From positions 463,437 through 527,436 of the forward strand of contig JBMNNJ010000001.1 in NCBI GenBank assembly GCA_050953885.1: a stretch of 64,000 nt of DNA, given 5' to 3'. Positions 2 to 63,440 of this stretch are shown here, in pieces; the first letter of the stretch is position 1, and every line of letters starts with the position of its first letter. Position numbers and translations under genes: made by a program. This stretch comes from Patescibacteria group bacterium (lineage in GTDB: Bacteria > Patescibacteriota > Microgenomatia > 0-14-0-10-38-17). Below the pieces are notes generated by a model. That model had not been told where the DNA came from, searched no databases, and saw only the letters and a list, made by a program, of their open reading frames with translations.

Positions 2-2764
2 ACAAGTCCGGGGCAAAAGTTACATGTGCAGGGTACTATTCAAGTTGGTAGCTCTACTTCTGGCGGAAACTTCTACCAAGATGCCCAAACTGGTTGGGAA
101 AGCGTAGTATCTGTTTATCGTGCAGGAGTGCTGAAAAGCGGAATAACAACAAATGGAAACGATGCAATTGGTTTATCAACAGGTGGTATCGCTTGGACTA
201 ATGCAAAATTGGCAATTTTAGGAAACGGCAATGTCGGCATCGGGACGACGAGTCCGGGGGCGAAGTTAGATGTGAGAGCGGGGAATCTTCGAGTTTATGG
301 CGGTAGTGATATTATCTTGCAAGACGACTCAACCGATCCTGGAGATTTGATATTTAGAGATAGTAGTAACACTGAATATGGAAGAGTCTATTCAGCAAGC
401 GGCGGGGCCCTTCATTTAAGTGGTGGTTCAAATACAGATGCTGAACTTACCGTTTATGATTCTGGAGCAATTTATTTCAACTCCGGCATTGGCAACAGAA
501 CCTCGCAGTATCACCAACTACACATCGATGCCGGGACCTGGGAGGTTTTCCGATATAGCTCCAGCCGAAAACTCAAATCAAACATAACTGATTTAGAAAT
601 TGACTCCTCAAAGATATACGACCTCCACCCGGTTTCTTTCACTCCTAACGATAACCCGGATATTAGGAATTTTGGGTTTATTGCCGAGGAGGCTATTGAA
701 ATAATTCCCGACTTGGTCTTGCTTGAGGCCGACGGTAGTCCTGGAGGTTTTCGATACGCCGATTTAAGCGTGCTTATACTTAACGAAATGATCAAGCAAA
801 AACCCATTATAGACAATATTTCCCTTGAATCAATTGACGATTTTAAGCCCAAGGAGGCTAGCGATTCTGCCTTCAGTTTAGTAAAAAAATCTACCGAGAA
901 AATAATTAAAAATGCCGCAGTTTTTGCCGAATTAGCGACAGCCAAGATTTATTCTGGACTTGTCGAAACCACTAACCTTATCACTGATAATTTGACCGCT
1001 AAAAGAATCACCAGCGAGGAGGTTATTTCGCCCCTTATTGAGACCGAGGAGATTAAGTTTAGCGAAAATGCCCGCCTTCGCCAAGGCTCCGGCGGGCAGG
1101 CAAAAGTAGCCATCGTTAATGCTGACGATGAGCCGACAGCGGAGTTTAACACGGAAACAAAAGAAACCACCCTCTTTGGCGACTTGGAGGTGGGCGGCAA
1201 TGTCGGTATTGGGCAGGAAGTCAGCGCCCCCAAGGCCAGCTTTGGCGATTTGCTGGCGCAAAAGATTAACACGGATGAAATTCAGGCAAACACGATTCAC
1301 GCGGATACGGCGCAGATTAGCGCGGATGCGACTATTTCCGGGACTTTATACGTTGACCGCGTGGTGGCCCGGCAGGGAGGGTTTGGAGAATTATTGGCGG
1401 AGAACATCAGCATGGACAGCATAAAGTCTATTGTTAAAGAAGAGGTAGGGATCCTGAATTCCACCCAAGGCGGACAGGCAAGCCAGGATGACGGGGGCGG
1501 AAGTCAGGATGATGATGTTCTTAGCCGTCATTCTGACGAAAGTCAGAATCTGGACAGCGGAGAACCAAGCCAAGAAGAATTCGACCTTCAGGCGCTTTTG
1601 GCAAAAGTGGAGGAATGGGCGGGGACAAGCGCTAAGAACGACTTAACGCTTGAGTGCACAACTGGGGCAGAAAACCAGATCCTGAATCAAGTTCAGGATG
1701 ACGGTTCGGTGGTGAGTCAGAATGACGAGGGCGGGGTGGTTCAGGATGACGAGGGCGGGGTGGTTCAGGATGACGGGAATCTTAATAGTCATCCTGACGA
1801 AAGTCAGGATCAAACCTTAAACCAAGCCCAAAAGAAAAACCTTTGCCTAGTGGATACCGACTTTACCGTTTTGGGCGGGCGGACCTCTCTGGCCGACACT
1901 GCCATCGCCGGCCAACTTTCCGTGGGCAGTTTAGTGATTAACAATAATTCCCTTGATGTTTTAGGCGACACTTTATACATTCAAAAATTAGCCATGGGAG
2001 GGCTGGACATCTTAAACGGCAAACTCACCGTGGACATTGACGGCAATGTCTTTATCGCCGCTCATTTAACCGTGGGCGGGGGCCTGGCCACCAACGAGAT
2101 TAGGCCGATGGAAGGGGGAGATATAACCTTCAATCTGGCTAACGTCATCCCAGACCCGATCCGGGATCAGGGAGAAACAGATCCTGACTTTCGTCAGGAT
2201 GACGGGGGTGGGGCGGTTCAGGATGACGGGAACGAGACGGGAAATAACACGGGATTTGGAAAGTTGTTAGTGAAGGGAATAAATAACGAAACGGTTGCCT
2301 CAATTGACGCCTCCGGCGCGGCCGAGTTTAAAGAGATAGCCACGGATTTATTGCGAATCAACGCGGATAAAGAAGCATCCGAATCAGCCCTCCTTATTGC
2401 CGCCGGCGAGAATTTTGAAAATATCGGCATTCAGGCACCGGGGATCAAGACCAACGCCACCGCCGGCGAGGCCACCCTACCGGCCGGAGAGAAAGAAATA
2501 ATTATCTATAATGACAAACTAACCGACCAGTCGCTGGTTTACCTCACCCCCACCGCGGACACTGGAAACAAAATTTTGTATGTCAAAGAAAAGGTAGGCA
2601 ACACGAATCAAGAACACGAATCAAACGAAAGAGACACGAAATTAACGAATGAAAACGAATTAAACGAATGGAACACGAATGAAACGAATGGTGGATATTT
2701 CGTAGTAGGGCTAAACGAAGCGCTTAACTGGGACGTACGGTTTAACTGGTGGATTATTAACTGA
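2..2764 (+). CDS. Tail-fibre/tail-spike-like repeat protein with an internal intramolecular-chaperone (Peptidase_S74-like) domain. The 5' end is truncated by the window edge, and the ORF carries in-frame insertions of intergenic repeat modules.
   Basis: The reading frame is open from nt 2 with no upstream stop. It contains TSPGxKLxV/NVGIG beta-helix-like repeats. The S74 chaperone signature is SSSRKLKSNITDLE...HPVSF...FGFIAEE...DGSPGGFRYADLSVLILNEMIK. Three low-complexity QDDGG/DPDFRQDD segments are encoded by repeat words, and the last ~30 aa are encoded by the acgaa linker array. Confidence 0.55.
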   Translation, partial: TSPGQKLHVQGTIQVGSSTSGGNFYQDAQTGWESVVSVYRAGVLKSGITTNGNDAIGLSTGGIAWTNAKLAILGNGNVGIGTTSPGAKLDVRAGNLRVYGGSDIILQDDSTDPGDLIFRDSSNTEYGRVYSASGGALHLSGGSNTDAELTVYDSGAIYFNSGIGNRTSQYHQLHIDAGTWEVFRYSSSRKLKSNITDLEIDSSKIYDLHPVSFTPNDNPDIRNFGFIAEEAIEIIPDLVLLEADGSPGGFRYADLSVLILNEMIKQKPIIDNISLESIDDFKPKEASDSAFSLVKKSTEKIIKNAAVFAELATAKIYSGLVETTNLITDNLTAKRITSEEVISPLIETEEIKFSENARLRQGSGGQAKVAIVNADDEPTAEFNTETKETTLFGDLEVGGNVGIGQEVSAPKASFGDLLAQKINTDEIQANTIHADTAQISADATISGTLYVDRVVARQGGFGELLAENISMDSIKSIVKEEVGILNSTQGGQASQDDGGGSQDDDVLSRHSDESQNLDSGEPSQEEFDLQALLAKVEEWAGTSAKNDLTLECTTGAENQILNQVQDDGSVVSQNDEGGVVQDDEGGVVQDDGNLNSHPDESQDQTLNQAQKKNLCLVDTDFTVLGGRTSLADTAIAGQLSVGSLVINNNSLDVLGDTLYIQKLAMGGLDILNGKLTVDIDGNVFIAAHLTVGGGLATNEIRPMEGGDITFNLANVIPDPIRDQGETDPDFRQDDGGGAVQDDGNETGNNTGFGKLLVKGINNETVASIDASGAAEFKEIATDLLRINADKEASESALLIAAGENFENIGIQAPGIKTNATAGEATLPAGEKEIIIYNDKLTDQSLVYLTPTADTGNKILYVKEKVGNTNQEHESNERDTKLTNENELNEWNTNETNGGYFVVGLNEALNWDVRFNWWIIN

Positions 2765-2924
2765 GACACGAATTAAACGAATGGAACACGAAACCAAACG
2801 AATAGAAACGAATCAAACGAAAGGAGAATGAATAAAAGCGAATAAGAGACACGAATTAAACGAAAGAAACACGAATCCAAACGAATGAAAACGAATTAAA
2901 CGAAAGAAAACGAATGGAACGAAA
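2595..2924. repeat. Gene-3' linker array: 10-11 bp phased (a)acgaaNNNN units in the sense orientation cacgaat. It begins inside the 3' end of ORF1.
   Basis: There are about 28 units, cacgaattaa / acgaatggaac / acgaaaccaa and so on. The pattern begins inside the ORF1 3' end, and about 15 units follow the stop. The outer end gacacgaattaaacgaatgg is shared with the array at 3339-3440. Confidence 0.8.
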
Positions 2925-3338
2925 ATGATTTTACACAAAGAATTAAGTTACCAAATAATTGGCGCCGTTTATAACACCAGAAAAATTTATGGCCCCGGTC
3001 AGAAAGAAATTGTTTACCAAAAAGGCCTTGCCGAAGAGTTAAAAGAAAATAATATTCCCTATAAGAGAGAGGTAAACATTAATATTATTTCTCCCAAAAG
3101 CGGCCGTATTTTGAGCAATTATCGGGTTGATTTTGTTATTAAAGAAAGGGTAATTTTGGAATTAAAATCATTAAAATTCCTCCCTCAAAAAATGGAGCAA
3201 CAGTTGTATTCCTACCTTCGTTCAACACCCTATGAAGTTGGATATTTAATTAATATGGGTGGCCCCGAAATTGACATTAAGCGGGTTATCCTCACCAATG
3301 ACCGCAAACCCTATCTCCACCTCTTTCACGTTCGTTAG
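2925..3338 (+). CDS. GxxExxY family protein (PD-(D/E)XK_3-type putative nuclease)
   Basis: It has the motif GQKEIVY (G-x-x-E-x-x-Y) followed by YRVDFVI...ILELKS, which is typical of PDDEXK_3. The gene is nested between inverted acgaa linker arrays. Confidence 0.55.
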   Translation: MILHKELSYQIIGAVYNTRKIYGPGQKEIVYQKGLAEELKENNIPYKREVNINIISPKSGRILSNYRVDFVIKERVILELKSLKFLPQKMEQQLYSYLRSTPYEVGYLINMGGPEIDIKRVILTNDRKPYLHLFHVR

Positions 3339-5444: not shown

Positions 5445-5582
5445 ATCTTTATACTATTATAGAAGCGGGGAGGTGTCAAGAGATATATGCAACGTAAAGC
5501 GTAACTTGTAATGCGTAATAAGCAAGTGCAAAGCGCAAATATCAAAAATTAAAATACAAATGTAAAATGCAAAAAGTTAGTA

Positions 5583-5700
5583 ACTCGCAATAAGTAAATT
5601 CAAAATTTAAAATTCAAAATTGCAAGTCAAAAGTTAAAAGTTTTTTTTGCTTTACTTTTGAATTTTAACTTGTAATTTTGACTTTTAACTTTTGACTTTT
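5583..5700. repeat. Type-1 word hairpin (tcaaaag / ttaaaag / caaaat words)
   Basis: The left arm caaaatttaaaattcaaaattgcaagtcaaaagttaaaag is followed by a loop and then the right arm ttttgaattttaacttgtaattttgacttttaacttttgac. Confidence 0.7.
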
Positions 5701-5711
5701 AACTTTTAGTT

Positions 5712-5876
5712 ATTCGATTCTGCCCGCCAGGCGGCGGATTCGTCAGAATGACGGCCACGATTAGCGTCATTCTGAACTTGATTCAGAATCGTTATTGATA
5801 TCTAAAGAACGGTAGATCCTGACTTTCGTCAGGATGACAGCGACGGGGATGATTCTGTCTGCCAGCAGGTGGACAG
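5712..5876. repeat. Type-3 composite GC palindromic element
   Basis: Its modules are ccgccaggcggcgg, attcgtcagaatgacgg..cgtcattctga, ctgaacttgattcag, gatcctgactttcgtcaggatgac and gtctgccagcaggtggacag. Confidence 0.8.
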
Positions 5877-5996
5877 AAGTTAAAAGTTCTTTTGCTTTAC
5901 TTTTTAATTTTAACTTGTACTTTTGACTTTTAACTTTTGCCTTTTGAATTTTTTTCGTTCCCCATTCGTTTTAATTCGTGTTTTCCAATCCCGTGT

Positions 5997-7064: not shown

Positions 7065-7140
7065 ACTATGTATAATAAAAAACTCAAATGTTAAATCGCA
7101 AATCTCAAAACTACATGTTAAAACTTAAAACTAAAAACTC

Positions 7141-7300
7141 AATCCGCCCGCTGGCGGATTCGTCAGAATGACGGCAGCCGTGCCGTCATTCCGGACTTGA
7201 TCCGGAATCTGTGTTATTGTCAGAAAACGCAGATCCTGACTTTCGTCAGGATGACGTTTACAGCAGAATAATGTTATTCGCTCATTCGTGTCCATTCGTT
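7141..7300. repeat. Type-3 composite element, a direct copy relative to 5712-5876
   Basis: The modules are ccgcccgctggcgg, attcgtcagaatgacgg..ccgtcattc and gatcctgactttcgtcaggatgac, occurring in the same order. Confidence 0.8.
7232..7291. repeat. Left arm of a 60-bp perfect inverted repeat bracketing rho
   Basis: The sequence gatcctgactttcgtcaggatgacgtttacagcagaataatgttattcgctcattcgtgt is the exact reverse complement of 8585-8644. Confidence 0.9.
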
Positions 7301-7329
7301 TCTAATTCGTTTTTATTCGTGTTTTTTTC

Positions 7330-8544: not shown

Positions 8545-8584
8545 CGTTAGAAAACACGAATTAAAACGAATTAAAAACGAATAA

Positions 8585-8644
8585 ACACGAATGAGCGAAT
8601 AACATTATTCTGCTGTAAACGTCATCCTGACGAAAGTCAGGATC
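8585..8644. repeat. Right arm of the 60-bp perfect inverted repeat bracketing rho
   Basis: The sequence is acacgaatgagcgaataacattattctgctgtaaacgtcatcctgacgaaagtcaggatc. Confidence 0.9.
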
Positions 8645-8831
8645 GGCTTTAAAGCTTGATGCTTGAAACGCTTGAGGCTTGAATCGCTTGAATCGTTTAA
8701 TGTTTTTACGTTTCAAACGTCTCATGCATTACGAAAGTCAGGATCGGCTTTAAAGCTTGATGCTTGAAACGCTTGAGGCTTGAATCGCTTGAATCGTTTA
8801 ATGTTTTTACGTTTCAAACGTCTCATGCATT
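8630..8831. repeat. Perfect tandem duplication of a 101-bp unit with gcttga words
   Basis: The unit acgaaagtcaggatcggctttaaagcttgatgcttgaaacgcttgaggcttgaatcgcttgaatcgtttaatgtttttacgtttcaaacgtctcatgcatt occurs at 8630-8730 and again at 8731-8831. Confidence 0.85.
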
Positions 8832-9136
8832 TCAAGCATTTCACGCATGATTCTGAATCAAGTTCAGAATGACGTTAAATTATGGCTGTTATTCTGACGA
8901 ATCCGCCGGCTGGCCCTGCACCAGCACGGTATAGGGTTGGCAGGCAGGATCTATCTTAAGGAACAACGGACGATTCATTAATAATCACCATCATCCATTA
9001 TGATATGGGAAAAATACGAGAGGATACGGGAAAACAAACGAGAAGAAATCCTGTTCCCTCCCGTGTGCTTACTTTATTTTTCTATCCCGTTTCATCCTGT
9101 GTTATTTATAGCAGAAGCAAGCTTAATTAAACCACA

Positions 9137-9904: not shown

Positions 9905-10065
9905 GAATATAACAAAAAGAAGAGGGTGTCAAGCAAAAAGAGTATTAAGTATAAAAAAACTCAAATGGCAAATGTTAAAACTAAAAACTACAACTCAAAA
10001 CTTAAAACTTGCAAAATACATACACTTTGAAAAGATTTGACATTTGACATGTAGTTTTGAGTTTT

Positions 10066-10251
10066 GATCCGCCAGCTGGCGGACAGCATCATCCCCGTAG
10101 CTGTCATTCCTAAATTAAATTCAGGACAGGCTCTGACGAAAGTCAGGATCTGCGTTCTTTAGATATTAATAATAACGATTCTGAATCAAGTTCAGAATGA
10201 CGCTAATCGTAGCCGTTATTTTGACGAATCCGCCGGCGGGCGGATTGAGCT
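10066..10251. repeat. Type-3 composite element with terminal ccgccNgcNggcgg palindromes
   Basis: The order is ccgccagctggcgg, then catccccgtagctgtcat, cctaaattaaattcagg, gatc..gacgaaagtcaggatc and ctgaatcaagttcag, ending in ccgccggcgggcgg. Confidence 0.8.
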
Positions 10252-10760
10252 TTAACATTTGAGTTTTGAATTTATACTTCCGTTTTCCACAATAACTTTT
10301 TAAAACCCCAAAACCTCTCTTTTTGAAGCCAAAAATAGCAATTTATAAAACTACAGGATACGCTATTTTTAGGGTGTTTTTTTCTATAGGCTTGACAAAA
10401 GAAATCCCTTGTGATAATCTTAAAAATGATGAAGAAGGCAAAAGGGAATAGGACAAATAAAACAAATAAAAGCGGGGAGAAAGAAGCAAGCTTTTTCAAA
10501 ATGGCTTTTTTCCGTCAGCAGTTGGAGGCAATGAAAAAATTAGGGGGAGAATTAATTCTGCAGGAAGGATAAAAAAAGGGCAAAAAAAGAGCATCGCTAT
10601 CGCCGATTCCACTGGTGGGAAAACCCGATTAGCAATGCCCTTTTTTGACTAAAAGAGAATGGAAATTTGCTAAACTAAAGTTATTAAAAAGATAGCAAAA
10701 AAAGGAAAAAAAGTCAAGCCCGAAAATACAAAATAAATTAAGCAACTTACAAAAGTTGCT

Positions 10761-12128: not shown

Positions 12129-12206
12129 TAATTCAGCGAATTAACACGAATGGGAAACGAAAAAAAATCAAAAGTCAAAAGTTAAAAGTCAAAATTACAA
12201 ATACAA

Positions 12207-12312
12207 TTCTGTAGGGGCGGACCTATGTGTCCGCCCGTCAAAGGGTCCGTACTGCTTATTTAAAACCATTAATCGGGTCGACACATGGGTCGACCCCTAC
12301 AAATTCCTTTGA
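12207..12312. repeat. Type-4 conserved dyad element, copy 1
   Basis: The sequence is ctgtaggggcggacctatgtgtccgcccgtcaaagggtccgtACTGCTTAtttaaaaccattaatcgggtcgacacatgggtcgacccctacaa. Confidence 0.8.
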
Positions 12313-12322
12313 ATTTTGAATT

Positions 12323-13453: not shown

Positions 13454-13550
13454 TCATCCTGCCTCCTTTTTTTATAAGATTATAAAGAATTATAACATAA
13501 AAAAATACATTATTAAACTGCTAAACTGTTAAATTGTTAAACTGTTGCCG

Positions 13551-13740
13551 GTGACAGACAAATGCAAATCTCAAATCGCAAATCTCAAAACTCAAAACTA
13601 CAACTCAAAACTCAAAACGCAAATGGCAAATCTACATGTTAAATGTTAAAACTTTTTTAAAGTTTAAAGTTGTTTTTTTTAGATTTGAGTTTTAACATGT
13701 AGTTTTGAGTTTTGCGATTTAACATTTGAGTTTATTTTTC
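13551..13740. repeat. Type-2 word hairpin (ctcaaaa / cgcaaat / ctacatgttaaa words) with an aaacttttttaaag loop
   Basis: The left arm caaatgcaaatctcaaatcgcaaatctcaaaactcaaaactacaactc...gcaaatctacatgttaaatgttaaaac pairs with the right arm gttttaacatgtagttttgagttttgcgatttaacatttgagttt. Confidence 0.75.
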
Positions 13741-13743
13741 GTT

Positions 13744-14721: not shown

Positions 14722-14740
14722 GGATGTAAAAATTCAAAAT

Positions 14741-14945
14741 TCAATCCGCCCGCGGGCGGGTTGAGTTGTAGTTTTAATCCGCCGCCTGGCGGACAGAATC
14801 ATCCCCATAGCTGTCATCCTGACGAAAGTCAGGATCTGGCTGATTCTGAATCAAGTTCAGAATGACGCTAATCGTGGCCGTCATTCCTGAATTAAATTCA
14901 GGACAGGTTCTGACGAATCCGCCAGCTGGCGGGTTGAATTTTAAC
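14741..14945. repeat. Type-3 composite element, the inverted arrangement of the 10066-10251 type
   Basis: The modules are ccgcccgcgggcgg, ccgccgcctggcgg, catccccatagctgtcat, gacgaaagtcaggatc, ctgaatcaagttcag, cctgaattaaattcagg and ccgccagctggcgg. Confidence 0.8.
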
Positions 14946-14964
14946 TTTTGACTTTGCAACAAGT

Positions 14965-15086
14965 GGTTCCCGGCAATGACCTATTTTCCCCCACCTTGCG
15001 GCGGGGTATCGTCAGCGCTGTCGCGTTTCACGACTCTGTTCGGAATGGGAAGAGGTGGGACCACGACGCTCCAATCACCGGGAACC
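14965..15086 (-). rRNA. rrf: 5S rRNA
   Basis: The reverse complement matches the 5S consensus GGTCCCACCT..TTCCGAAC..GTGAAACG..GCGCTGA. Helix I is closed by ggttcccgg/ccgggaacc. Confidence 0.75.
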
Positions 15087-15431
15087 AAATTTTAAAACTT
15101 ATCTTTAATAAGAGTAGGAAAGAGCATCTTTAAAATGCCGAAAACCATTAGTACCGGTCAGCTTAATTTGTTGCCAAACTTACACCTCCGGCCTATCAAC
15201 CAGGTAGTCTCCCTGGGGTCTTAAAGACTCTTCATCTTGGGATCGGTTTCCCGCTTGAGATGCTTTCAGCGGTTATCCAAAACAAACATAGCTACCCAGC
15301 ATTGCGGCTGATGCCACAACTGGACCACCAGAGGTTTGCCCATCCCAGTCCTCTCGTACTAGGGACAGATTCCCTCAAGAATCAAAACGGTTACTGCGGA
15401 TAGAGACCAAGCTGTCTTACGCATATTATCC

Positions 15432-16176: not shown

Positions 16177-16670
16177 AACCCAGCTCACGTAGGTTTTTAA
16201 TGGGCGAACAGTCCAACCCTTGGGGGCTTCTTCACCCCCAGGTTAACCTGAGCCGACATCGAGGTCGCGAACTGGCCCGTCGATATGTACTCTTGGGACC
16301 AACCACGCTGTTATCCCCGGGGTAGCTTTTATCCGTTAAGCCCCGACCCTTCCACGCGGTATCGGGGGATCACTAAGACCTGCTTTCGCATCTGCTCGAC
16401 CCGTCGGTCTTGCAGTTAAGCTGGCTTTTGCCTTTGCACTTTACTCGCGGTTTCCATCCGCAAGAAGCCAACCTTTGTACGCTCGCGTTACCTTTTAGCA
16501 AGCGACTGCCCCAGTCAAACTGCCCACCAGACACTGTCCTAGTTTGCGTTTCCAGCAAACATTAGTCAGAATTGTTATTTCCAAAGAGAGGTGTTTCATT
16601 GTTGCCCCGCCAAAAGGCGGGGCTCCCTCCTACGCTAAACAATTGGAAATAACTCCTCAATATCAAGTTG

Positions 16671-16702
<32 letters not shown>

Positions 16703-17478: not shown

Positions 17479-17479
17479 A

Positions 17480-46549: not shown

Positions 46550-46616
46550 CCGTTTTTTAATTTTAATAACTAGGCCACAACGATAAAAAGTCAAAACGCA
46601 AATGGCAAATACAATT

Positions 46617-47780: not shown

Positions 47781-47835
47781 ACTTAAAAAATTTCTAATAT
47801 TAGTCCTATAAGACCTATTGGACCTATTTTATTTT

Positions 47836-48669: not shown

Positions 48670-48769
48670 AACTAATCTTTAGTATAGCACAAAACGTATT
48701 TTGTATTTAGCATTAAGACAAGAACCAACGCGGACGAGAAACGAAAGAAAATAATTCAAAATTCAAAAG

Positions 48770-49030
48770 TCAATCCGCCAGCTGGCGGATCAAAATTGCA
48801 AATACAATTCTTGTAGGGGCGGACCCATGTGTCCGCCCGTTAAAGGGTTCGTGCTGCTTATTTAAAACCATTAATCGGGTCGACACATGGGTCGACCCCT
48901 ACAAATTCCCTTGCGTTTTGCGATTTAACATTTGAGTTTATTTTTTGTTTTTGAACTTTGATTTAGGTTTTGATCTCTGATATTTGCACTTTGCACTTGC
49001 CTATTACGGATTACGAATTATTCAGCCCGC
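48770..49030. repeat. Long composite element (ccgccagctggcgg, type-4 copy 5, type-2 tail, type-5 words)
   Basis: Type-4 occupies 48810-48904 with the variable core GCTGCTTA. The arrangement is the same as at 22270-22450. Confidence 0.8.
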
Positions 49031-49072
49031 CACAATGAAACAAGGCAATAATGAAGCAATACTCTCTGTTTG

Positions 49073-49624: not shown

Positions 49625-49846
49625 AAAAGTTAAAGAAATTGTTTATCTAAATTTAGCACGCTTTTCTCAAGCCAGATAGCAAAAACCCCACACAAAAAAA
49701 TGCAAAATTCAAAAATCAAAATGCAAAACCAAGCTCAAAAACCAAAACTTGAAAATATTTTTGAACTTTGCTCTAGGTTTTGATCTTTGATATTTACACT
49801 TTGCGCTTATTTTGGTAATGATTTGTTCTTTCGTTTCTCGTTCGTG

Positions 49847-50506: not shown

Positions 50507-50750
50507 ACTTTAGATGATACAAAGATACAAAGAAACACGATAATATAAAGTCAAAAGTTAAAAATCAGTAATTCGTAATATGCAACAAAAAAGCGCAAAA
50601 AGCAAAGTGCAAAGATTAGAACCTAAATCAAAATTCAAAGATATTTTTAATTCTTGGCTTTGGTCTTTGAGCTTGGTTTTGCATTTTACTCTTTACACTT
50701 TAATCTTGTTTTCTCACGAGTTACTAACTTTTTACATTTTACATTACATT

Positions 50751-50888
50751 CAATCCGCCAGCTGGCGGACAGAATCATCCCCGTAGCTGTCATCCTGACG
50801 AAAGTCAGGATCTGGCTGATTCTGAATCAAGTTCAGAATGACGCTAATCGTGGCCGTCATTCTGACGAATCCGCCAGCTGGCGGATTG
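50751..50888. repeat. Type-3 composite element bounded by ccgccagctggcgg at both ends
   Basis: The order is ccgccagctggcggacag, then catccccgtagctgtcat, gacgaaagtcaggatc, ctgaatcaagttcag and cgtcattctgacgaat, ending in ccgccagctggcgg. Confidence 0.8.
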
Positions 50889-50946
50889 ACTTTTGACTTG
50901 CAATTTTGACTTTTGACTTTTGCATTTTGAATTATTTTCTTGTTTC

Positions 50947-51978: not shown

Positions 51979-52149
51979 TACTTAATCATTAAATCATGAA
52001 ATCATTAAATCATTAAATCAAAAGAGCAAAAAACAGTTAAAAATTACTAAAATTGTATTTTTTTAAACACGCGAATTGACGCGAATGAGAACGAAAAAAA
52101 CAATTCAAATATCAAATATCAAAGCGCAAAACCAAGTTCAAAGACCAAA

Positions 52150-52440
52150 ACTACAAATTAAAACTCAAAATGCAAATGGCAAATACAATTCTGTAGGGGC
52201 GGACCCATGTGTCCGCCCGTCAAAGGGTCCGTCCCTACCTTATTTAAAACCATTAATCGGGTCGACACATGGGTCGACCCCTACAAATTCCCTTGCGTTT
52301 TGCGATTTAACATTTGAGTTTATCTTTTGTTTTTGAGCTTTGATTTAGGTTCTAATCTTTGCATTTTGCGCTTTGCACTTTTTTATTACGGATTACTGAT
52401 TTTTAACTTTTAACTTTATCTTATCGTGTTTCTTTGTATC
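52150..52440. repeat. Long composite element containing type-4 copy 6
   Basis: Type-4 occupies 52194-52289 with the variable core CCCTACCT. The composite is nearly identical to 29500-29800. Confidence 0.8.
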
Positions 52441-52448
52441 TTAGTATC

Positions 52449-53546: not shown

Positions 53547-53589
53547 GATAATAATTCAAAATTCAAAAGTTAAAAGTCAAAATTAAAAG

Positions 53590-53790
53590 ATAAAAGCATC
53601 AATTAAATCCCAAAACGCAAATGGCAAACCTGCCTGCCGGCAAGGCAGGTCTACATGGCAAATGTTAAAACTTTTTAAAGCCTAAAGTTGTTTTTTTAGA
53701 TTTGAGTTTTGAGTTGTCGTTTTGAGTTTTGCGATTTAACATTTGAGTTTATCTTTTGTTTTTGAACTTTGCTTTAGGTTTTGATTTTTG
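53590..53790. repeat. Type-2 word hairpin with the palindrome cctgcctgccggcaaggcaggt
   Basis: The arms are caaaacgcaaatggcaaa...ctacatggcaaatgttaaaac and gttttgagttttgcgatttaacatttgagttt. Confidence 0.7.
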
Positions 53791-53828
53791 ATATTTGCGC
53801 TTTGCGCTTTTTTATTGCCCGTTACGAG

Positions 53829-54269: not shown

Positions 54270-54364
54270 AATAGTATTTTGTATATTGTCTTAAGTATTA
54301 GGTATAAATATAAGTTCAAAATGCAAAGAGTAAAAATCAAAACCTAAATCAAAGTTCAAAAACA

Positions 54365-54520
54365 AAAGATAAACTCAAATGTTAAATCGCAAAACTCAAA
54401 ACTACAACTCAAAACTCAAATCTAAAAAACAACTTTAGGCTTTAAAAAGTTTTAACATTTGCCATGTAGTTTTGCCATTTGACATTTGAGCTTTGAGTTT
54501 TTTATACTTAATACTTAATA
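54365..54520. repeat. Type-2 word hairpin (inverted orientation)
   Basis: The sequence is aaactcaaatgttaaatcgcaaaactcaaaactacaactcaaaactcaaatct...gttttaacatttgccatgtagttttgccatttgacatttgag. Confidence 0.7.
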
Positions 54521-54587
54521 CCAAATACCAAATACAATTTTCTTTTCTCGTTCGTGTTTTTTAGCAATATAGCAACTTATCGGTTAT

Positions 54588-55262: not shown

Positions 55263-55329
55263 GGCTACATTGTTAAAAGACACGAACAAACGAACGGGAA
55301 GCGAAAATTGTATTTTGTATAAAGTATTA

Positions 55330-55500
55330 AGTATAAAAAACTCAAAACTCAAATGGCAAATGTCAAATCTACATGGCAAATGTTAAAACTTTTTAAAGCT
55401 TAAAATTGTTTTTTAAGATTTGAGTTTTGAGTTGTAGTTTTGAGTTTTGCGATTTGAGATTTGAGTTTTAACGTGTAGATTTGCCATTTAAGTTTTGAGA
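55330..55500. repeat. Type-2 word hairpin
   Basis: It uses the same word set, with the loop aaactttttaaagcttaaaattgttttttaag. Confidence 0.7.
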
Positions 55501-55520
55501 TTTAATTTTAAGCTTGTCTA

Positions 55521-56145: not shown

Positions 56146-56210
56146 TTGACTTTTTTAAAAATTTCAACTATCCTTATTTTAACTTGTCTTAAAAAATTTA
56201 GCAAGGAGAA

Positions 56211-57095
56211 ATGGCAAGAGTTAAAAAAGGAGTTATCGCCGCCGCCGGCCGGGGAACCCGCTTTCTGCCGGTTACCAAAGCCTACCCTAAAGAGCTTGTC
56301 CCCATTTTGGAAAAGCCCAACATTCAGTATTTAGTGGAAGAACTTTTGGCCGCCGGTGTTAATGAAATTGCCATTATTCACCGCCATGCCGATCCGGCCT
56401 TAAAACAATATTTTACCCCCGATAAAGAGCTGGAGAAGTTTTTAAAAGAAAATAGTAAAGAAGCATTTTTGGAAAGTCTTAAAAGAATTTGGCAAAAAGC
56501 CAAAGCGCTCCGCTTTATCCCCCAACCACAACATCTTCCCTACGGCAATGCCTCTCCAGTTTTAGCAGCCAAAAATTTTCTTAAAAACGATCCGTTTGTT
56601 TTTATGTTTGGCGACGATCTTTTAATTGAAAAAAAGACCGGCCAATATCTTAAAAAATTAATCTCCTACTACGAAAAATATCAGCCGGCAATTATCTTGG
56701 GCGCCCAAGAAGTTAGCCGCGAGGAAATTAGCCGCTACGCGAGCATTAAATATCAAGATGACCCCCGCTATCCCTACCGAGCCAGCGCTGTTTTGGAAAA
56801 ACTGCCTGCCGAAAAAGCGCCCTCGCTGGTGGCTCAATTTGGCCGGTTTGTGGTTTCTCCCGAAATTTTTCCGGTTTTGGCCGCGCAAGAGCTTTCCCGC
56901 GACAACGAGCTCTGGTTTGCCGACGCGGTAAATACCTTGGCGAAAACCAAAGTGGCCTTGGCCGTCCCCTTAACGGACGCCACTTGGATGACTACCGGTG
57001 ATCCCCTGCGTTGGCTGGAGACTAATCTTGTCGTCGGACTTTCTCATCCCCAAATTGGCCCGGAATTAAAAAAGTTTCTTCGCAAAAATCTTTAA
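56211..57095 (+). CDS. galU: UTP--glucose-1-phosphate uridylyltransferase-like nucleotidyltransferase
   Basis: The motif is KGVIAAAGRGTRFLPVTKAYPKELVPI. Confidence 0.75.
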   Translation: MARVKKGVIAAAGRGTRFLPVTKAYPKELVPILEKPNIQYLVEELLAAGVNEIAIIHRHADPALKQYFTPDKELEKFLKENSKEAFLESLKRIWQKAKALRFIPQPQHLPYGNASPVLAAKNFLKNDPFVFMFGDDLLIEKKTGQYLKKLISYYEKYQPAIILGAQEVSREEISRYASIKYQDDPRYPYRASAVLEKLPAEKAPSLVAQFGRFVVSPEIFPVLAAQELSRDNELWFADAVNTLAKTKVALAVPLTDATWMTTGDPLRWLETNLVVGLSHPQIGPELKKFLRKNL

Positions 57096-57652
57096 GAAGA
57101 AAACCTTAGCTTTTCTTCTTTAACCAAAAAATAATCAGCCCCTTTTTTTGAAAGCCGGCTTTCAAAAAGGCCAAGTGAAGAAATTGAAAATTCCCCGGTA
57201 GTCACTTTTGGCAAATTTCTTTTAAAAATTTTTTCTTTTTTGGAAAAACGCGTGAGGGTAATGTGAGGCAAAAAGGGCTTTTGATCAAAACCAATATTTC
57301 TTGCCAAAAACTCCTCGCCTAATCTTTGGCGAAAAGAAAAAAGCCTTTCTTCATCCCTGCCGCCAACTTTCACCCAAATTCCCCGCGGCCGGCTGCAACT
57401 AGGGAAAAAAGAAAGATCGGCAAAAGAAAAGGTAAAGGGCTTTTCCTCTAAAGCCACTTTGGAAAAAGCTTCTTTAATTTTTCCCTCCTCTTGACTTGAT
57501 GCTTGGCCGAAGAAAAAAAGCGTTAGATGAAGATTCTCCTTCGCTTGCGGTCGGCCGGGAAGTTTTTGAAAAAGCGAGGAAAGAAAGGAAAGCGCTTCCT
57601 CCGGCAAAAGAAGAGCCAAAAAAAGCCGCTTATTTTTAATCTTCCCCGCCAT
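57092..57652 (-). CDS. thpR: RNA 2',3'-cyclic phosphodiesterase (2H family, ThpR/LigT)
   Basis: It has two H-x-T-x motifs, HLTL and HITL. Confidence 0.75.
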   Translation of the reverse strand: MAGKIKNKRLFLALLLPEEALSFLSSLFQKLPGRPQAKENLHLTLFFFGQASSQEEGKIKEAFSKVALEEKPFTFSFADLSFFPSCSRPRGIWVKVGGRDEERLFSFRQRLGEEFLARNIGFDQKPFLPHITLTRFSKKEKIFKRNLPKVTTGEFSISSLGLFESRLSKKGADYFLVKEEKLRFSS

Positions 57653-57653
57653 T

Positions 57654-58562
57654 TTAAAAAATAAAATTAACCTTCTTCCCTCTTGCCTTGGGAGAATATT
57701 GCAAAACTAGCTGTTTTGCCTTTTCTTTCCCCTCTTTATTAATCTTGCCACCAAAAGGTCGCCCCAAAACCGTTGGCCCGGGAATTTCAGCTAACTCTAT
57801 TAAATAGTCGCCTTTCCCCACTAATTTTTTAAGTCTTTCGTTTTCCTCCTCGTTTCTACCAACCACAAACAAAACTTCATTATCCCAAAAATGGCGGCCT
57901 AATTTTAGGAGAGCCAGATCAGAAGCAGTTGGCCGGGGGTTAACGGTAAGAAGATTTTTTAGCCTTTGGGAAAAGTTTGGGTCGGTTAGCAAACAGCCGC
58001 CGGCCGGTGTTTGGTAATTCTTAAGGCCCCAAATTTTACTCAATCTTAGCTGTTCTTTTCTTTGCTTCCCCTTAATTGAATAAAGCTTATTTTTTAAAAT
58101 TAACCCCTTTTTCTCCGGCCAACTGGGCGGTAAAAGTTTGGCCGAAAGGGGCCGCAAAACCAATCCCTCCACCCCCGCCTCTTTCTCAATTAATTTTAGT
58201 GCCGCCAAACTTTGGGAAAAAGGCCGCTGACCTAAAACCTCACCGGTTACCAAAAAAGAAGCCCCCTCTTCTTCCATTATTTCTTTCGCCTTTTTTAACA
58301 TCAGCGCATGGCAATCCCGACAGGGATTAAGCCCCGCCCCAAAACCATAATGGGGGGAAAAGACCAACGCCAGTTGCTCTTGGGAGATATCAACTATTTT
58401 TAAAGGAATTCCTAATTCCGCCGCTTGTTTTTTGGTAATGCTTGAAGGATCAAAAAAGTAACTTTTAAAAGAAACCCCTATTAACTCAACCTTTTCCTCC
58501 TTAACAATTTTTGCCGCCAAAAGGCTGTCCAACCCGCCGGAGAGCAAAACCACCGCCTTCAT
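57654..58562 (-). CDS. ThiI-like PP-loop ATPase (tRNA thiolation), short form without a THUMP domain
   Basis: The motif SGGLDS is present, and the region NPCRDCHALM...TGEVLGQRPFSQSL resembles the ThiI C-terminal region. Confidence 0.55.
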   Translation of the reverse strand: MKAVVLLSGGLDSLLAAKIVKEEKVELIGVSFKSYFFDPSSITKKQAAELGIPLKIVDISQEQLALVFSPHYGFGAGLNPCRDCHALMLKKAKEIMEEEGASFLVTGEVLGQRPFSQSLAALKLIEKEAGVEGLVLRPLSAKLLPPSWPEKKGLILKNKLYSIKGKQRKEQLRLSKIWGLKNYQTPAGGCLLTDPNFSQRLKNLLTVNPRPTASDLALLKLGRHFWDNEVLFVVGRNEEENERLKKLVGKGDYLIELAEIPGPTVLGRPFGGKINKEGKEKAKQLVLQYSPKARGKKVNFIF

Positions 58563-58709
58563 ATTTATATTATAAACTTTAGGTTACAAACTACCAAAAC
58601 TCTAAAATCTTAAAATCACCAAGCTTGTTTTTCCTGAAATACTACATCGTATCCCATATGGCTGAACCATTGATTAACCCATTAAATTAATCAGTTTTTG
58701 CCCAAAAAA

Positions 58710-61201: not shown

Positions 61202-61209
61202 TAACTCTC

Positions 61210-61290
61210 AAGACAAAAATTAAGTCAAAAGTTAAAAGTTTTTTACTTTACTTTTTAATTTTAACTTGTACTTTTGACTTTTAAATTTTA
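61210..61290. repeat. Type-1 word hairpin between the two ferredoxin oxidoreductase subunit genes
   Basis: The sequence is caaaagttaaaagttttttactttactttttaattttaacttgtacttttgacttttaaattttaacttttg. Confidence 0.7.
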
Positions 61291-63000
61291 ACTTTTGAAT
61301 TTTTTCTCTATCTCCCCTTCAAAAAACGGCCGGCCATCATCTTTTAAAATCTGCTGGTCAACTTCAATTCCTGTTTCCATTTTAATCAATTTCGCCAACT
61401 GACCGGTGCTATTGTTTTCCACGCTAATAACTTTTTCTGCCGCCAATAAAATTTTCTTTGCCTCTTGGGGAAACGGCCAAGGACGGTAAAAATGCAGAAA
61501 ATTAACCGCCAAACCCTGATCGGCCAAGTTCTCTTGGGCTTTTAAAACCGCTGCCTTCGTTGAGCCAAAAGAAACCAAGGTGATTTTAGCTTTTTTGGGG
61601 CCATAAAGAGCGCTGCCGGGAGAAGAAAAATGAGCCAACTTTTTTAACAACTTTTCTTTCATCTTTACTCTTGTTTGGCCATCTTCAACAGAAAATCCTT
61701 CCTCATCATGAACATAAGAATTGGTTAAAAATTGGGCCTGCCCGGGAAAAGCCCGCAAGGAAATGCCGTCTTTGGTCAACCGATAGCGCCGGTAATTTTT
61801 TAAATCCGCCGGCTGGGCTAATTTTCCCCGTTTAATTTTTAAACCCCAAGTTTGAGCGGAAAAAAAATCGCTTGAAAAAACGCTTTCGCTTAAGTATTTA
61901 TCGGTTAAAACCACCACCGGCAATTGGTAAATTTCCGCCAAGTTAAAAGCTTCAAAAGTAAAACGATAAGCCTCGGCTGGATCGCCCGGAGAGAAAATAA
62001 TCCGGGGAAATTCCCCCTGACCGGCGTGGATTAAAAACAGCAAATCCTCCTGCGAGGTCCAGGTGGCCATGCCGGTGGAGGGACCGGTCCGCATCCCCTC
62101 CACCACCACCAAGGGAATCTCCGCCGCCCCGGCCATGCCAAAAGCCTCAACCATCAGAGAAAACCCACCGCCAGAGGTGGCCGCCATTGCCCGCCGACCG
62201 GCATAGGAAGCACCAAGAGCGGCGTTTATCCCGGCAATCTCGTCCTCGGGAGTAAAAACCACCATTCCTGTTTCTTTTTTCTTTCCCGCCAAAATTGTCA
62301 AAATAGAATTAATCGGCGTCATCGGATAAATGGCGGCAAAACCTACTCCCGCCTCAAGCGCGCCCTGACTAATTGCCTCATTGCCGGTTAAAAATAACCG
62401 TTTTTTTTCTCCCGCCGGTGGCTGGGGGATATTTTCTCCTCGCCAGTTAATTTTTTGGGCCAGCCGGTAACCTGCCTCGGCCGCCTTTTGGTTGCCCGCC
62501 ACCACTTTCTCGCCCTTGTCGGCAAACGCATTTTTAAGGCTTTCTTTTAAGGCCAAAAGAGGAAAATTAAGGAGACCAAAAACCACCCCCGAAGCCACCG
62601 AGTTGCGGGCCAAGAAAAAGCCGGCGGTTTTTTGGGCAATTTCGTCTAAGGGGATTCCCACCGCTTCACGGTATTGAAGTGGTTTTTTTTCTACTTCATT
62701 ATATAAGAGTAGGCCGTTTTCTTTTTTCTCGTTAAGGTGCAAAGGGAAATTTTCCGGTGAAAAAATCACCAAAAGATCGTTTTTTGCCTCAGGAAGCGGC
62801 ATTGATAACGAAGAAAAAGAAATCTGGCTCACATTATCACCACCCCGGATACGAGAAGGATATTCCGGATAAGAAAGAACCGAAAATCCTAAACTGCTTA
62901 ACGCTTCTCCCAACACCCGCCCTCCTTCCATAATACCAAAACCAGCTGGACCAGAAAATTTAACCGAAAACATCTTTTTAAATTTAAAAATTAGCGCCAA
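61288..63000 (-). CDS. 2-oxoacid:ferredoxin oxidoreductase, alpha subunit, with a fused N-terminal gamma-like domain
   Basis: The motifs are GYPITP-like YPMTPIN and core domains I/II. The gene is adjacent to the beta subunit. Confidence 0.8.
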   Translation of the reverse strand: MALIFKFKKMFSVKFSGPAGFGIMEGGRVLGEALSSLGFSVLSYPEYPSRIRGGDNVSQISFSSLSMPLPEAKNDLLVIFSPENFPLHLNEKKENGLLLYNEVEKKPLQYREAVGIPLDEIAQKTAGFFLARNSVASGVVFGLLNFPLLALKESLKNAFADKGEKVVAGNQKAAEAGYRLAQKINWRGENIPQPPAGEKKRLFLTGNEAISQGALEAGVGFAAIYPMTPINSILTILAGKKKETGMVVFTPEDEIAGINAALGASYAGRRAMAATSGGGFSLMVEAFGMAGAAEIPLVVVEGMRTGPSTGMATWTSQEDLLFLIHAGQGEFPRIIFSPGDPAEAYRFTFEAFNLAEIYQLPVVVLTDKYLSESVFSSDFFSAQTWGLKIKRGKLAQPADLKNYRRYRLTKDGISLRAFPGQAQFLTNSYVHDEEGFSVEDGQTRVKMKEKLLKKLAHFSSPGSALYGPKKAKITLVSFGSTKAAVLKAQENLADQGLAVNFLHFYRPWPFPQEAKKILLAAEKVISVENNSTGQLAKLIKMETGIEVDQQILKDDGRPFFEGEIEKKFKS

Positions 63001-63305
63001 AATTCAGGGATAGATATTGGCGCCTGCGGCAAAAGTTTTTGCAATAAGGCGATAATATCCAAACCAATTTCCTGAAGCAAAGGCAAAGAGGCAGGCACAA
63101 AAATTATCAAAAGAATCAGCCAAATAAAGCTTTTTTTCACCAACTCAATAAGCGATTTTAAAAGAAAAATAAAAACAACCAGAGAAATAATTCCCCCCAT
63201 CCAATCGGGGAAAACCGTCAAAAACTGCTGCCAAAGAGAATAAAGCTGGTCGAGAAAAAAGTTAAGAGACACGATAAAAAATTCAAAGATAATAAATAAA
63301 CTCAA
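62991..63305 (-). CDS. Small membrane protein (hypothetical)
   Basis: It has three hydrophobic helices. Confidence 0.3.
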   Translation of the reverse strand: MSLFIIFEFFIVSLNFFLDQLYSLWQQFLTVFPDWMGGIISLVVFIFLLKSLIELVKKSFIWLILLIIFVPASLPLLQEIGLDIIALLQKLLPQAPISIPEFWR

Positions 63306-63440
63306 ATGTTAAATCGCAAAACTCAAAACTACATGTTAAAACTCAAATCTAAAAAATAACTTTAAGTTTTAAAAAGTTTTAACATTTAACATGTAGATTT
63401 GACATTTGCGTTTTGAGATTTGCGATTTAAGCTTGCCATT
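63290..63440. repeat. Type-2 word hairpin
   Basis: The sequence is aaactcaaatgttaaatcgcaaaactcaaaactacatgttaaaactc...gttttaacatttaacatgtagatttgacatttgcgttttgag. Confidence 0.7.

Follow-up and report, generated by a model that had tools for sequence, protein, structure and literature searches.

Described repeat systems and the present locus

Short tandemly repeated repetitive (STRR) sequences are heptamer tandem repeats of heterocystous cyanobacteria. Direct repeats of the heptamer TAACTGA occur in Beggiatoaceae, cyanobacteria and Bacteroidetes; of the 170 sets studied, a single one was an indirect repeat, and the repeats have been suggested to bind a protein or to act post-transcriptionally (PMC4679880). 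GTAG-tagged repetitive extragenic palindromic (REP) sequences, REP dimers and REPINs are mobilised by RAYT (TnpA-REP) transposases (PMC3733652, PMC3116915), and the former study counts the Rickettsia palindromic elements (RPE) RPE-4 and RPE-6 and the Neisseria dRS3 among CGTC-tagged REPs and reports in-frame insertion into genes for intragenic REPs (PMC3733652). Long, intron-bearing 23S rRNA genes with LAGLIDADG open reading frames (ORFs) are typical of Candidate Phyla Radiation (CPR) bacteria (PMC11270868). Here we analyse 64,000 nucleotides of a Patescibacteria group bacterium (GenBank assembly GCA_050953885.1, contig JBMNNJ010000001.1, positions 463,437 to 527,436 of the forward strand; hereafter 'the window', in whose numbering coordinates without a contig name are given), the spacers of which carry six families of repeat modules: elements composed of degenerate heptamer words (types 1, 2 and 5), clusters assignable by sequence to CGTC-tagged REPs (type 3), dimers assignable to GTAG-tagged REPs (type 4) and linkers of ACGAA or TTCGT words. 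It seems probable to us that palindromic DNA resembling REPs, bacterial interspersed mosaic elements (BIMEs) and miniature inverted-repeat transposable elements (MITEs) has colonised originally short spacers in this lineage by spreading and nesting, and that it probably marks transcript boundaries.

Type 4 shares with the described GTAG-REPs and REPINs a GTAG head, an 8-bp GC-rich stem, a loop, an intergenic position and multiple copies, and its ends lie inverted about 40 nt apart with GTAG outside, an arrangement called 'HH dimer' in PMC3733652. It differs in that all copies have one orientation and are embedded between heptamer arms, that the window holds no RAYT, and that the host belongs to the CPR, a group not named in the available part of that 2013 survey. 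Type 3 has the tag, the 8-bp AT-starting stem, the 4–5 nt loop, the clustering and the in-frame gene copies of the CGTC-REPs in the same survey, from which it departs by a tail other than CCA, by CCGCCAGCTGGCGG-bounded clusters nested in heptamer hairpins and by its lineage. With STRR and TAACTGA repeats the heptamer arrays share intergenic tandem 7-nt units, often just upstream of start codons; whereas one heptamer is repeated there, about 12 variants of a degenerate YAAANNN word alternate here, and the arrays are paired, A-rich with T-rich, as the inverted arms of separate dispersed elements. The composites recall BIMEs, MITEs, Correia elements and enterobacterial repetitive intergenic consensus (ERIC) sequences as mosaics of intergenic palindromic units, nested, present in both orientations and presumably transcribed as hairpins, but their terminal inverted repeats are 50–60 nt arrays of short words, only ~75% complementary, and no target-site duplication or parent transposon was found here. 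As in other CPR rRNA genes, insertions occupy stem-loop tips of the 16S and 23S genes beside introns encoding LAGLIDADG endonucleases; three of the insertions here are, in contrast, non-intronic and ORF-free and consist of the same hairpin modules as the spacers (A-rich arm, CCGCC palindrome, U-rich arm), a link that the main text of the CPR rRNA-insertion survey, searched for repeat, palindrome and hairpin, does not make.

The general phenomenon, be it REP/BIME, MITE, RPE or STRR, is already known, and types 3 and 4 fall within catalogued REP super-families, so that an original prediction made from the sequence, which placed the system well beyond REP, BIME and RPE-type elements, was too broad for two of the six families. 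That prediction had also allowed that the families might already be catalogued, which holds insofar as the type 3 and 4 hairpins are known in other phyla and fails for this lineage, for which no catalogue was found; our literature search yielded no description of repeats in Shapirobacteria, the host group, or of heptamer arrays in CPR bacteria. What is noteworthy here is the combination of degenerate heptamer-word arms, strict nesting at centres, a streamlined CPR host and modules common to spacers, rRNA insertions and a protein: one module source gives rise to intergenic repeats, rRNA helix-tip insertions and in-frame protein linkers. CPR (Patescibacteria) genomes serve as models of streamlining and this lineage has gone the opposite way, with about 18% of the window intergenic; the locus is a natural experiment on the invasion of a tiny genome by REP/MITE-like DNA and its persistence there.

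Repeat content of the window and reality of the spacers

Intergenic DNA amounts to 11,694 of 63,280 nt (18.5%), with spacers of at least 150 nt at 31 of 53 gene junctions; many genes abut or overlap. Recurring 14-mers cover 58.4% of intergenic against 5.6% of genic DNA, and period-7 YAAANNN (heptamer) arrays 24.4% against 0.6% (14-mers replaced 11-mers, the coverage of which was inflated by low-complexity A/T-rich coding sequence). Self-similarity peaks at lag 7 alone (519 windows along the sequence with at least 75% match, against 0–72 at other lags); 62 period-7 array segments (3,215 nt) were found, compared with 0–3 in block shuffles, together with 74 runs in which three or more YAAANNN words keep register (294 words in total), compared with 0–1 in shuffles. 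The vocabulary comprises 47 different words, about 12 of them dominant, the most frequent being CAAAACT, CAAAAGT, CAAAATT, CAAATCT, CAAATGT and TAAAAGT. There are 58 inverted-repeat pairs with arms of up to 66 nt, spacers have folding z-scores of −3 to −10, and the GTAG hairpin, the CGTC hairpin and the CCGCC palindrome each occur 9–26 times where 0–0.04 are expected. No spacer module matched an Rfam family, even at E ≤ 0.05. The core observation of a repeat system is thereby confirmed, far above chance, and with it the predicted modular, word-built construction in a recurring order, which proved to be a nested one. The original claim of repeats in almost every gap and between nearly all genes is too strong, given the number of junctions with long spacers, the presence of heptamer arrays in 27 of 41 spacers of at least 50 nt, and six module-free spacers (28722–29209, 30789–30886, 44546–44620, 47781–47835, 56146–56210 and 58563–58709). 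Two copies described as near-identical over about 300 bp (29500–29800 and 52150–52440) are in fact 89% identical over 268 nt (29504–29771 and 52155–52422).

The sequence of the window is chromosomal and belongs to a Candidatus Shapirobacteria bacterium (CPR/Patescibacteria). Its housekeeping genes include those for Rho, S1, RadA, PGK, GAPDH, TIM, RpiB, transketolase and penicillin-binding proteins, and the nearest species-level genome, L007, is a Candidatus Shapirobacteria metagenome-assembled genome (MAG) from a sludge digester, with a 90% identical GAPDH protein. Eleven contigs of JGI, ENA (biogas fermenter) and Logan assemblies encode the exact GAPDH protein, and they were aligned to the window along with one further contig. 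Gap-free alignments were obtained at 100% identity over 14,883 nt (L002) and 8,943 nt (L003), 99.98% over 9,058 nt (L211, which takes in most of the 23S gene), 99.45% over 2,751 nt (L004) and 99.1% over 15,089 nt (strain L001). Independent metagenome assemblies thus reproduce up to 15 kb with about 15 consecutive spacers and, because they are identical or nearly so without gaps, the spacers are not assembly artefacts, in agreement with the original prediction that the repeats are real. Chimeric joining of repetitive reads during assembly or scaffolding of the MAG might have been suspected from the very short contigs into which relatives of the lineage assemble and from the tendency of contig ends to fall at repeats (e.g. 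L087 and L211); with five independent JGI, ENA and Logan assemblies agreeing through the spacers and the 23S insertions, and with elements of the same kind in the sister species L007, its probability is close to nil. The repeats themselves account for the breaking of assemblies of this lineage into ~1-kb contigs.

Heptamer-word elements

Types 1, 2 and 5 are dispersed elements of 110–210 nt with long imperfect inverted arms made of tandem YAAANNN heptamers. Copies at separate loci have a common word order, are 90–95% identical and occur in both orientations; those of type 2 also share a non-palindromic 60-nt centre and are 92–95% identical. Within a single type 1 or type 2 element the arms (45–66 nt) reach no more than 71–82% complementarity, and the better pairing partner of an arm is therefore an inverted copy at another locus, not the opposite arm of its own element (type 1, P = 0.008; type 2, P = 0.0001). 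Selection against pairing with the own partner was considered and rejected, since the statistic, although real, is explained by the inverted copies at other loci. Tandem direct repeats of a single heptamer, the STRR and TAACTGA pattern, do not describe these arrays, in which the 47 words are set in inverted arms; like MITEs, types 1 and 2 have terminal inverted repeats and dispersed copies of 100–300 nt. Judged by their sequence, the heptamer elements are discrete dispersed repeats and more than the outcome of local slippage.

In an alignment of type 1 copies, one and the same half-element abuts, depending on the copy, unique DNA, a TTCGT linker, a complete A-rich arm or the terminus of a REP cluster, and these varied partners indicate recombination at shared words. 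Growth of the arrays in place, by duplication of multi-word blocks, is in part directly visible and in part inferred. Tandem Repeats Finder gave higher-order periods of 20, 27, 34, 41 and 39–40 nt in the arrays, and a perfect 101-nt tandem duplication at 8630–8831 (2.0 copies, 100% identical), beginning at a CGTC-REP hairpin, looks like a very recent event. The type 2 string was absent from viral contigs, 74 of which contained generic four-unit YAAAAKT arrays; these repeat one word each and do not come in inverted pairs of arms.

REP-class modules and word linkers

The type 4 unit, ~115 nt long, contains two inverted hairpins, GTAGGGGCGGACCCATGTGTCCGCCC and GTAGGGGTCGACCCATGTGTCGACCC. Its end reads GTAG, GGGCGGAC, loop CCATGT and GTCCGCCC, that is, an unpaired GTAG at the end of a palindrome with an 8-bp stem (6–13 bp in GTAG-REPs), and its two inverted REPs have the 20–100 bp spacing of REP dimers and REPINs. 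The GTAG hairpin has 11 matches in the window against none expected. Seven copies, all in one orientation, align over ~115 nt, namely five complete dimers and a truncated one from the window and a further dimer from strain L001; the truncated copy (46604–46700) shows a compensatory stem change. On these features type 4 can be classed as a GTAG-tagged, REPIN-like REP dimer. The exact 26-nt GTAG hairpin is carried by at least 120 metagenome contigs from varied sources with a GC content of 0.39–0.70, usually with the partner hairpin next to it. Only three of them, short and low in GC, also hold heptamer arrays, and two of these three (L132 and L133) match the window at repeat modules alone, their remaining sequence having no match there; the GTAG hairpin class is therefore cross-phylum and the heptamer system lineage-specific. 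Several groups of hairpin contigs (within L091–L170) have conserved flanks, for example ...atcatacaggtaatttatcttct before GTAGGGGCGGACCCATGTGTCCGCCC or ggcggaaaca...ttcggcgaattcg after it. An association of the hairpin with GxxExxY or four-helix-bundle (IVP) genes was rejected, as no such gene turned up when ORFs from 80 metagenome loci were searched with phmmer.

Type 3 clusters contain the units h3, CGTC-ATTCTGAA-CTTGA-TTCAGAAT, with the CGTC tag in seven of seven copies, and h4, (C/T)GTC-ATCCTGAC-GAAA-GTCAGGAT, with CGTC or TGTC in eight of nine. Their 8-bp stem, which begins with AT, agrees together with tag and loop with the CGTC-REP definition (CGTC or TGTC tag, 8–9 bp stem opening with A–T pairs, 4–5 nt loop); in place of the CCA tail they end in CTG, CTA, CAG or CGT. 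From this pattern type 3 modules can be recognised as clustered CGTC-tagged REPs. CCGCCNGNNGGCGG palindromes mark the cluster boundaries (14 sites, with 26 strand-specific matches against 0.04 expected). The linker words ACGAA and TTCGT, which the original prediction had described as phased, turn out to be spaced 9–11 nt apart (a period of ~10 nt) and not 7; a TTCGT linker of ~30 nt, TTTTTTCGTTTCCCATTCGTGTTAATTCGCGT, is conserved.

Layering of the spacers

From the upstream stop to the downstream start, a typical spacer is layered 5′ to 3′ as optional 8-mer arrays, ACGAA linker, A-rich arms, core, T-rich arms and TTCGT linker. The ACGAA/TTCGT arrays are the outermost layer, and the A-rich arm layers follow each other as type 5, type 2 and type 1 words, then the core. 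Neighbouring runs within 250 nt showed 24 A-to-T, 11 T-to-T and six A-to-A transitions and no T-to-A transition; because the last class is empty, the layers are nested at dyad centres, never placed in tandem, and module maps of the spacers agree with nesting. The repeat-bearing sites are listed below, with the strand where one applies.

1524–2205 (+): CGTC-REP units and derivatives, in frame in g1 (units 1524–1554, 1673–1704, 1785–1815 and 2175–2205)
1691–1775 (+): 24-nt unit in 3.5 copies, in g1
2596–2690 (+): 3′ end of g1, with ACGAA words in its reading frame (peptide NTNQEHESNERDTKLTNENELNEWNTNETN); a shorter form at this position in the relative L287
2765–2924: ~16 ACGAA words, period ~10 nt, upstream of the GxxExxY gene g2; 3–4 words in L287–L292
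3339–3422: inverted partner array of ~9 TTCGT words, downstream of g2
5445–5996: composite of type 5 arm, full type 1 hairpin (5592–5718), CGTC-REP cluster (~5719–5880), half type 1 element (5880–5954) and TTCGT linker
7065–7329: type 2 arm (7084–7148), CCGCC palindrome, CGTC-REP cluster and ACGAA linker
8545–9136: TTCGT linker and CGTC-REP cluster, with the 101-nt perfect duplication
9905–10330: type 2 hairpin arms (9961–10020 and others) around a CGTC-REP cluster (10069–10243)
12129–12322: TTCGT linker, type 1 arm and GTAG-REP dimer (type 4, 12196–12310)
13454–13743: type 2 hairpin (arms 13553–13655 and 13660–13740) and 8-mer array
14722–14967: CGTC-REP cluster with four CCGCC palindromes, between g9 and the 5S rRNA gene
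17740–17880 (−): hairpin module inside the 23S gene (A-rich heptamers, CCGCCAGCGGGCGG, U-rich heptamers), also in assembly L211
19495–19660 (−): type 2-like heptamer hairpin inside the 23S gene, ~170–280 nt from its 5′ end, also in L211
19923–20195: ACGAA linker and type 1 hairpin (19994–20103), between tRNA-Ala and tRNA-Ile in the rRNA operon
21889–22009 (−): 122-nt insertion at the tip of 16S helix 6 (A-rich heptamers, CCCCCAGCUGGCGG, U-rich heptamers with UUUCGGA words)
22089–22507: upstream of 16S, type 2 words, GTAG-REP dimer (22310–22425), CCGCCAGCTGGCGG palindrome and TTCGT linker
23036–23257: type 1 hairpin (23077–23190) and TTCGT linker
24409–24584: type 1 hairpin (24426–24547), 93% identical to the copy at 23080–23186
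25350–25515: type 1 hairpin, opposite orientation
25957–26124: ACGAA linker and type 1 hairpin (26007–26133)
29398–29808: layered spacer with linker, type 1 arm, GTAG-REP dimer (29527–29643), type 2, type 5 and type 1 arms and 8-mer arrays
34080–34325: type 5 hairpin with GC palindrome, ACGAA linker and 8-mer array
35394–35709: type 2 element with non-palindromic 60-nt centre in a divergent spacer, 93–95% identical to the copy at 40586–40796
36749–36991: type 2 hairpin and TTCGT linker; a −10-like box abuts each flanking gene
39194–39509: inverted type 2 element in a convergent spacer, with an internal 41-nt higher-order repeat
40548–40881: type 2 element, CCGCC palindrome and linker
43132–43552: type 1 arms split by a CGTC-REP cluster (43228–43375); a GTAG-REP dimer instead in strain L001
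45548–45790: type 2 element, 92% identical to the copy at 39255–39370
46550–46850: the truncated GTAG-REP dimer with the compensatory stem change, and heptamer runs
48670–49072: type 5, type 2, GTAG-REP dimer (48798–48912), CCGCC palindrome, type 1 arm and linker; the orthologous spacer of L007 has 24 nt
49625–49846: type 5 hairpin and ACGAA linker
50507–50946: type 1 arms, CGTC-REP cluster (50755–50884) and type 5 hairpin
51979–52448: layered spacer with GTAG-REP dimer (52178–52294), the 89% identical counterpart of 29504–29771
53547–53828: type 1, 2 and 5 layers around a GC palindrome (53624–53654)
54270–54587: type 5 and type 2 hairpin and heptamer runs, with 'taatac/caaatac' words
55263–55520: type 2 hairpin and TTCGT linker
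61202–61307: short type 1 hairpin
63290–63440: type 2 hairpin

Copies in rRNA genes and in a coding sequence

By alignment to Rfam, 122 nt stand in the 16S gene in place of the 4-nt loop of helix 6. The insert folds as one hairpin (−58.7 kcal/mol, z = −5.6) and, as an extra hairpin at the tip of a variable helix, has the form of an rRNA intervening sequence. The 23S gene (15129–19792) measures 4.66 kb against 2.9 kb for the model and contains two insert regions of the same design as the 16S insert (A-rich arm, centre, U-rich arm), each folding as a single hairpin, as well as two LAGLIDADG homing-endonuclease ORFs (15576–16055 and 16867–17376) and weak group I intron matches (15430–15575 and 15919–16179).

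Gene g1 (26–2764) encodes a tail-fibre-like protein with a Peptidase_S74 domain, and its ORF reads in frame through four CGTC-REP units and a stretch of ACGAA words. In comparison with five homologues, these parts fall in variable linkers between conserved blocks; one of them, a 44-aa insert, is specific to the window and absent from the homologues P0121 and P0122, the flanking blocks being conserved, and the REP-encoded peptide ILNQVQDD occurs at other positions in other Shapirobacteria homologues. As with RPE-like elements, in-frame insertion has left the conserved blocks of g1 intact.

Comparison with relatives and turnover

A gene block comprising FeS-assembly protein, TIM, RpiB, PGK, GAPDH, RPE (here the enzyme), LOG, transketolase, DeoC and PfkB is syntenic in relatives. 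Its spacers measure 222–470 nt at most junctions in the window; those of tpiA-rpiB-pgk-gap have 282–470 nt, against at most 14 nt or gene overlaps in L088 and 12–92 nt in L090. Over the whole block, three relatives compare as follows.

L088, PGK 60% identical to the window: block spacers of at most 14 nt, or gene overlaps
L090, PGK 57% identical: block spacers of 10–105 nt
L087, PGK 86% identical: block spacers of 33–97 nt, almost without arrays

The expectation that repeats separate the normally co-transcribed gap, pgk, rpiB and tpiA was borne out, these genes being contiguous in L088 and L090 and split here, and a conserved glycolysis/pentose-phosphate block that is contiguous in relatives has thus been broken apart. 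Heptamer arrays reach a density of 50–86 nt/kb in this species and 49 nt/kb in L007, against at most 10 nt/kb (median 0) in 79 further genomes, some of them from other CPR lineages. Most orthologous spacers of L007 also contain hairpins, though of other families and lengths: the LOG-transketolase spacer has 403 nt in the window and 24 nt in L007, with a GTGCTATACT box retained in both, and the spacer between the N and C parts of transketolase has 55 nt in the window and a 96-nt hairpin in L007. A comparison of orthologous loci for filled and empty sites, which the original prediction had proposed, thus revealed differing occupancy relative to the sister species. Elements of L007 and of the window are 88–91% identical at non-orthologous loci, whereas coding DNA is 77–85% identical. 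In the more distant, Shapirobacteria-like L089 and L090, arrays of 3–5 heptamers (words such as AGAAATT, TGAAAAT and GGAAATT) stand directly upstream of many start codons.

Strain L001 differs from the window by the replacement of a spacer cassette of ~300 nt (type 1 element and REP cluster) with a GTAG-REP dimer, a swap located where substitutions are clustered. The 138 substitutions that distinguish L001 from the window all lie in two tracts, 43491–44000 and 56802–58524, which adjoin structural differences and leave the intervening 12.8 kb identical; the tracts look like recombination imports. Because of this clustering nothing can be inferred from substitution rates between the two, and slower evolution of spacers under extreme constraint (4 of 3,212 spacer bases and 134 of 11,877 coding bases differ) was withdrawn as a conclusion. 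Given that relatives are compact, that the loci of L007 differ and that a cassette was swapped between strains, we conclude that invasion, turnover and dispersal are specific to this lineage. The copying that had been predicted to be ongoing can be called recent or ongoing, with copies 90–95% identical, a perfect 101-nt duplication and a cassette swap between 99%-identical strains. As a separate observation, ~130 nt of the window (58576–58706) correspond to 874 nt in L001 (2529–3403), which encode a YerC/YecD TrpR-related protein of 147 aa; this 874-nt stretch has palindromes of its own at each end and a tract of dense substitutions alongside.

Gene boundaries

In the 45 nt upstream of 45 start codons, a TGnTAtAaT-like −10 box ends 1–11 nt before many starts (for example those of g6, g24, g25, g26, g32 and g43) and a Shine-Dalgarno-like motif precedes only about five of the 45 genes, a pattern which suggests that leaderless mRNAs are widespread. 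Because −10 boxes abut starts and Shine-Dalgarno motifs are rare, genes without translational coupling probably need their own transcript, and the hairpins would probably mark transcript boundaries, by termination, RNase III processing or 3′-end protection. With an A-rich arm, a GC palindrome and a U-rich arm in succession, the layout is similar to that of a bidirectional terminator. CCGCC palindromes with their A-/T-rich arms fit the intrinsic-terminator pattern; most heptamer hairpins have no GC stem.

Origin and role of the repeats

Any explanation has to account for what the sequences show directly, namely the families and their architecture, their restriction to the lineage, their turnover and nesting, and the copies in rRNA and coding sequence. 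If REP/BIME/MITE-like DNA has spread and nested here, elements would reach new sites as copies, recombination between shared words would exchange them, and arrays would extend in place through duplication of multi-word blocks. New elements may survive only at the dyad centre of a resident palindrome or at another harmless hairpin tip; insertion at centres would build onion-like composites with A-rich arms 5′ and T-rich arms 3′, and a RAYT-type Y1 transposase would be expected to mobilise the GTAG dimers. The survival rule would also explain why copies sit at rRNA helix tips and in hydrophilic linkers of the surface protein g1. Several results weigh against this account. No transposase or RAYT (Y1) gene is present in the 64-kb window or on related contigs, and neither target-site duplications nor clean pairs of filled and empty sites could be defined at strain level, the sole strain difference lying inside a recombination tract. 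Some 25 arrays across four assemblies show no indel at all, so slippage is not fast, and the stronger conservation of word sequences than of genes between species could mean function rather than selfish spread. For the role at transcript boundaries, scans with terminator- and promoter-like consensus patterns were weakly enriched over shuffles (26 against 19.3 ± 4.7 and 27 against 18.4 ± 3.7), and sense and antisense folding energies gave no advantage to the sense strand, hence no G–U signature of selection at the RNA level.

The conservation of words beyond that of pairing and of genes keeps alive a reading in which they are bound by a protein. The heptamer arms would then be a cis-acting code, arrays of inward-facing binding sites on both sides of a gene boundary that are kept for function and are not selfish, read by a dedicated transposase-like or nucleoid DNA binder, or by an RNA binder such as S1, a cold-shock or a CsrA-type protein, and controlling termination, translation or mRNA stability. 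Word identity and order of 90–95% against an arm complementarity of 71–82%, words better conserved between species than coding DNA, strict polarity, the lack of array length polymorphism among assemblies, the short arrays at start codons in L089 and L090 and the similar proposal for Beggiatoaceae TAACTGA heptamers (PMC4679880) all favour such a code. We nevertheless regard it as rather unlikely, as presence, family and position vary freely between sister species and even strains, L087, 86% identical, does almost without arrays in spacers of 33–97 nt, elements occur in convergent, divergent and co-directional spacers alike and also in rRNA and coding sequence, and no candidate binding protein was found. 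A bolder and still less likely combination would have the arms serve as inward binding arrays for a lineage-specific protein and, with the REPs, form a self-propagating system that inserts at hairpin tips, marks gene boundaries under mostly leaderless mRNAs and also creates rRNA expansion segments and disordered protein linkers. That the hairpins act mainly as bidirectional intrinsic terminators or insulators, selected because many leaderless genes each need their own promoter, would suit the layout of A-rich arm, CCGCCAGCTGGCGG and T-rich arm, the invariable position of the A-rich arm 5′ of the T-rich arm, the −10-like boxes at start codons with rare Shine-Dalgarno motifs, and the presence of elements in convergent spacers; yet a GC-rich stem is absent from most type 1 and type 2 hairpins, the terminator-like scan barely exceeds its shuffles, relatives do with spacers of 0–100 nt, and the same modules lie within the rRNA genes (16S and 23S), in which a terminator would do harm, an argument against any simple terminator role; we judge this explanation improbable. 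Even less credence is due to purely local slippage or unequal recombination of heptamers, as in STRR arrays, with elements never mobile and similarity across loci convergent. The tandem period-7 structure, the higher-order duplications and the in-place expansion of the ACGAA arrays around g2 relative to L287 agree with it, but long specific word orders and non-repetitive 60-nt centres are 92–95% identical across loci in both orientations, the same families occur at non-orthologous loci in L007 and arrays are free of indels among assemblies; as the sole explanation, growth in place is already contradicted.

Genes beside the repeats

The GxxExxY gene g2 (PDDEXK_3, TIGR04256; 2925–3338) lies between the inverted ACGAA and TTCGT arrays, which number 16 and nine words in the window against 3–4 in the relatives L287–L292, where the order of tail-fibre-like protein, GxxExxY and TPR protein is the same. 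Homologous GxxExxY genes are found almost only on ~1 kb contigs. That g2 is the cargo of a mobile element bounded by the ACGAA arrays was rejected, g2 standing in conserved synteny in relatives with only 3–4 flanking words. An apparent 361-nt spacer contains a ferredoxin-like ORF of 59–62 aa at 24220–24408 on the minus strand (MLKVDKDKCIGCGTC...). In L090, a four-helix-bundle gene ('23S rRNA IVP', TIGR02436; 11062–11572) is located between PGK and GAPDH and is flanked by inverted heptamer runs of opposite polarity, the T-rich run coming first.

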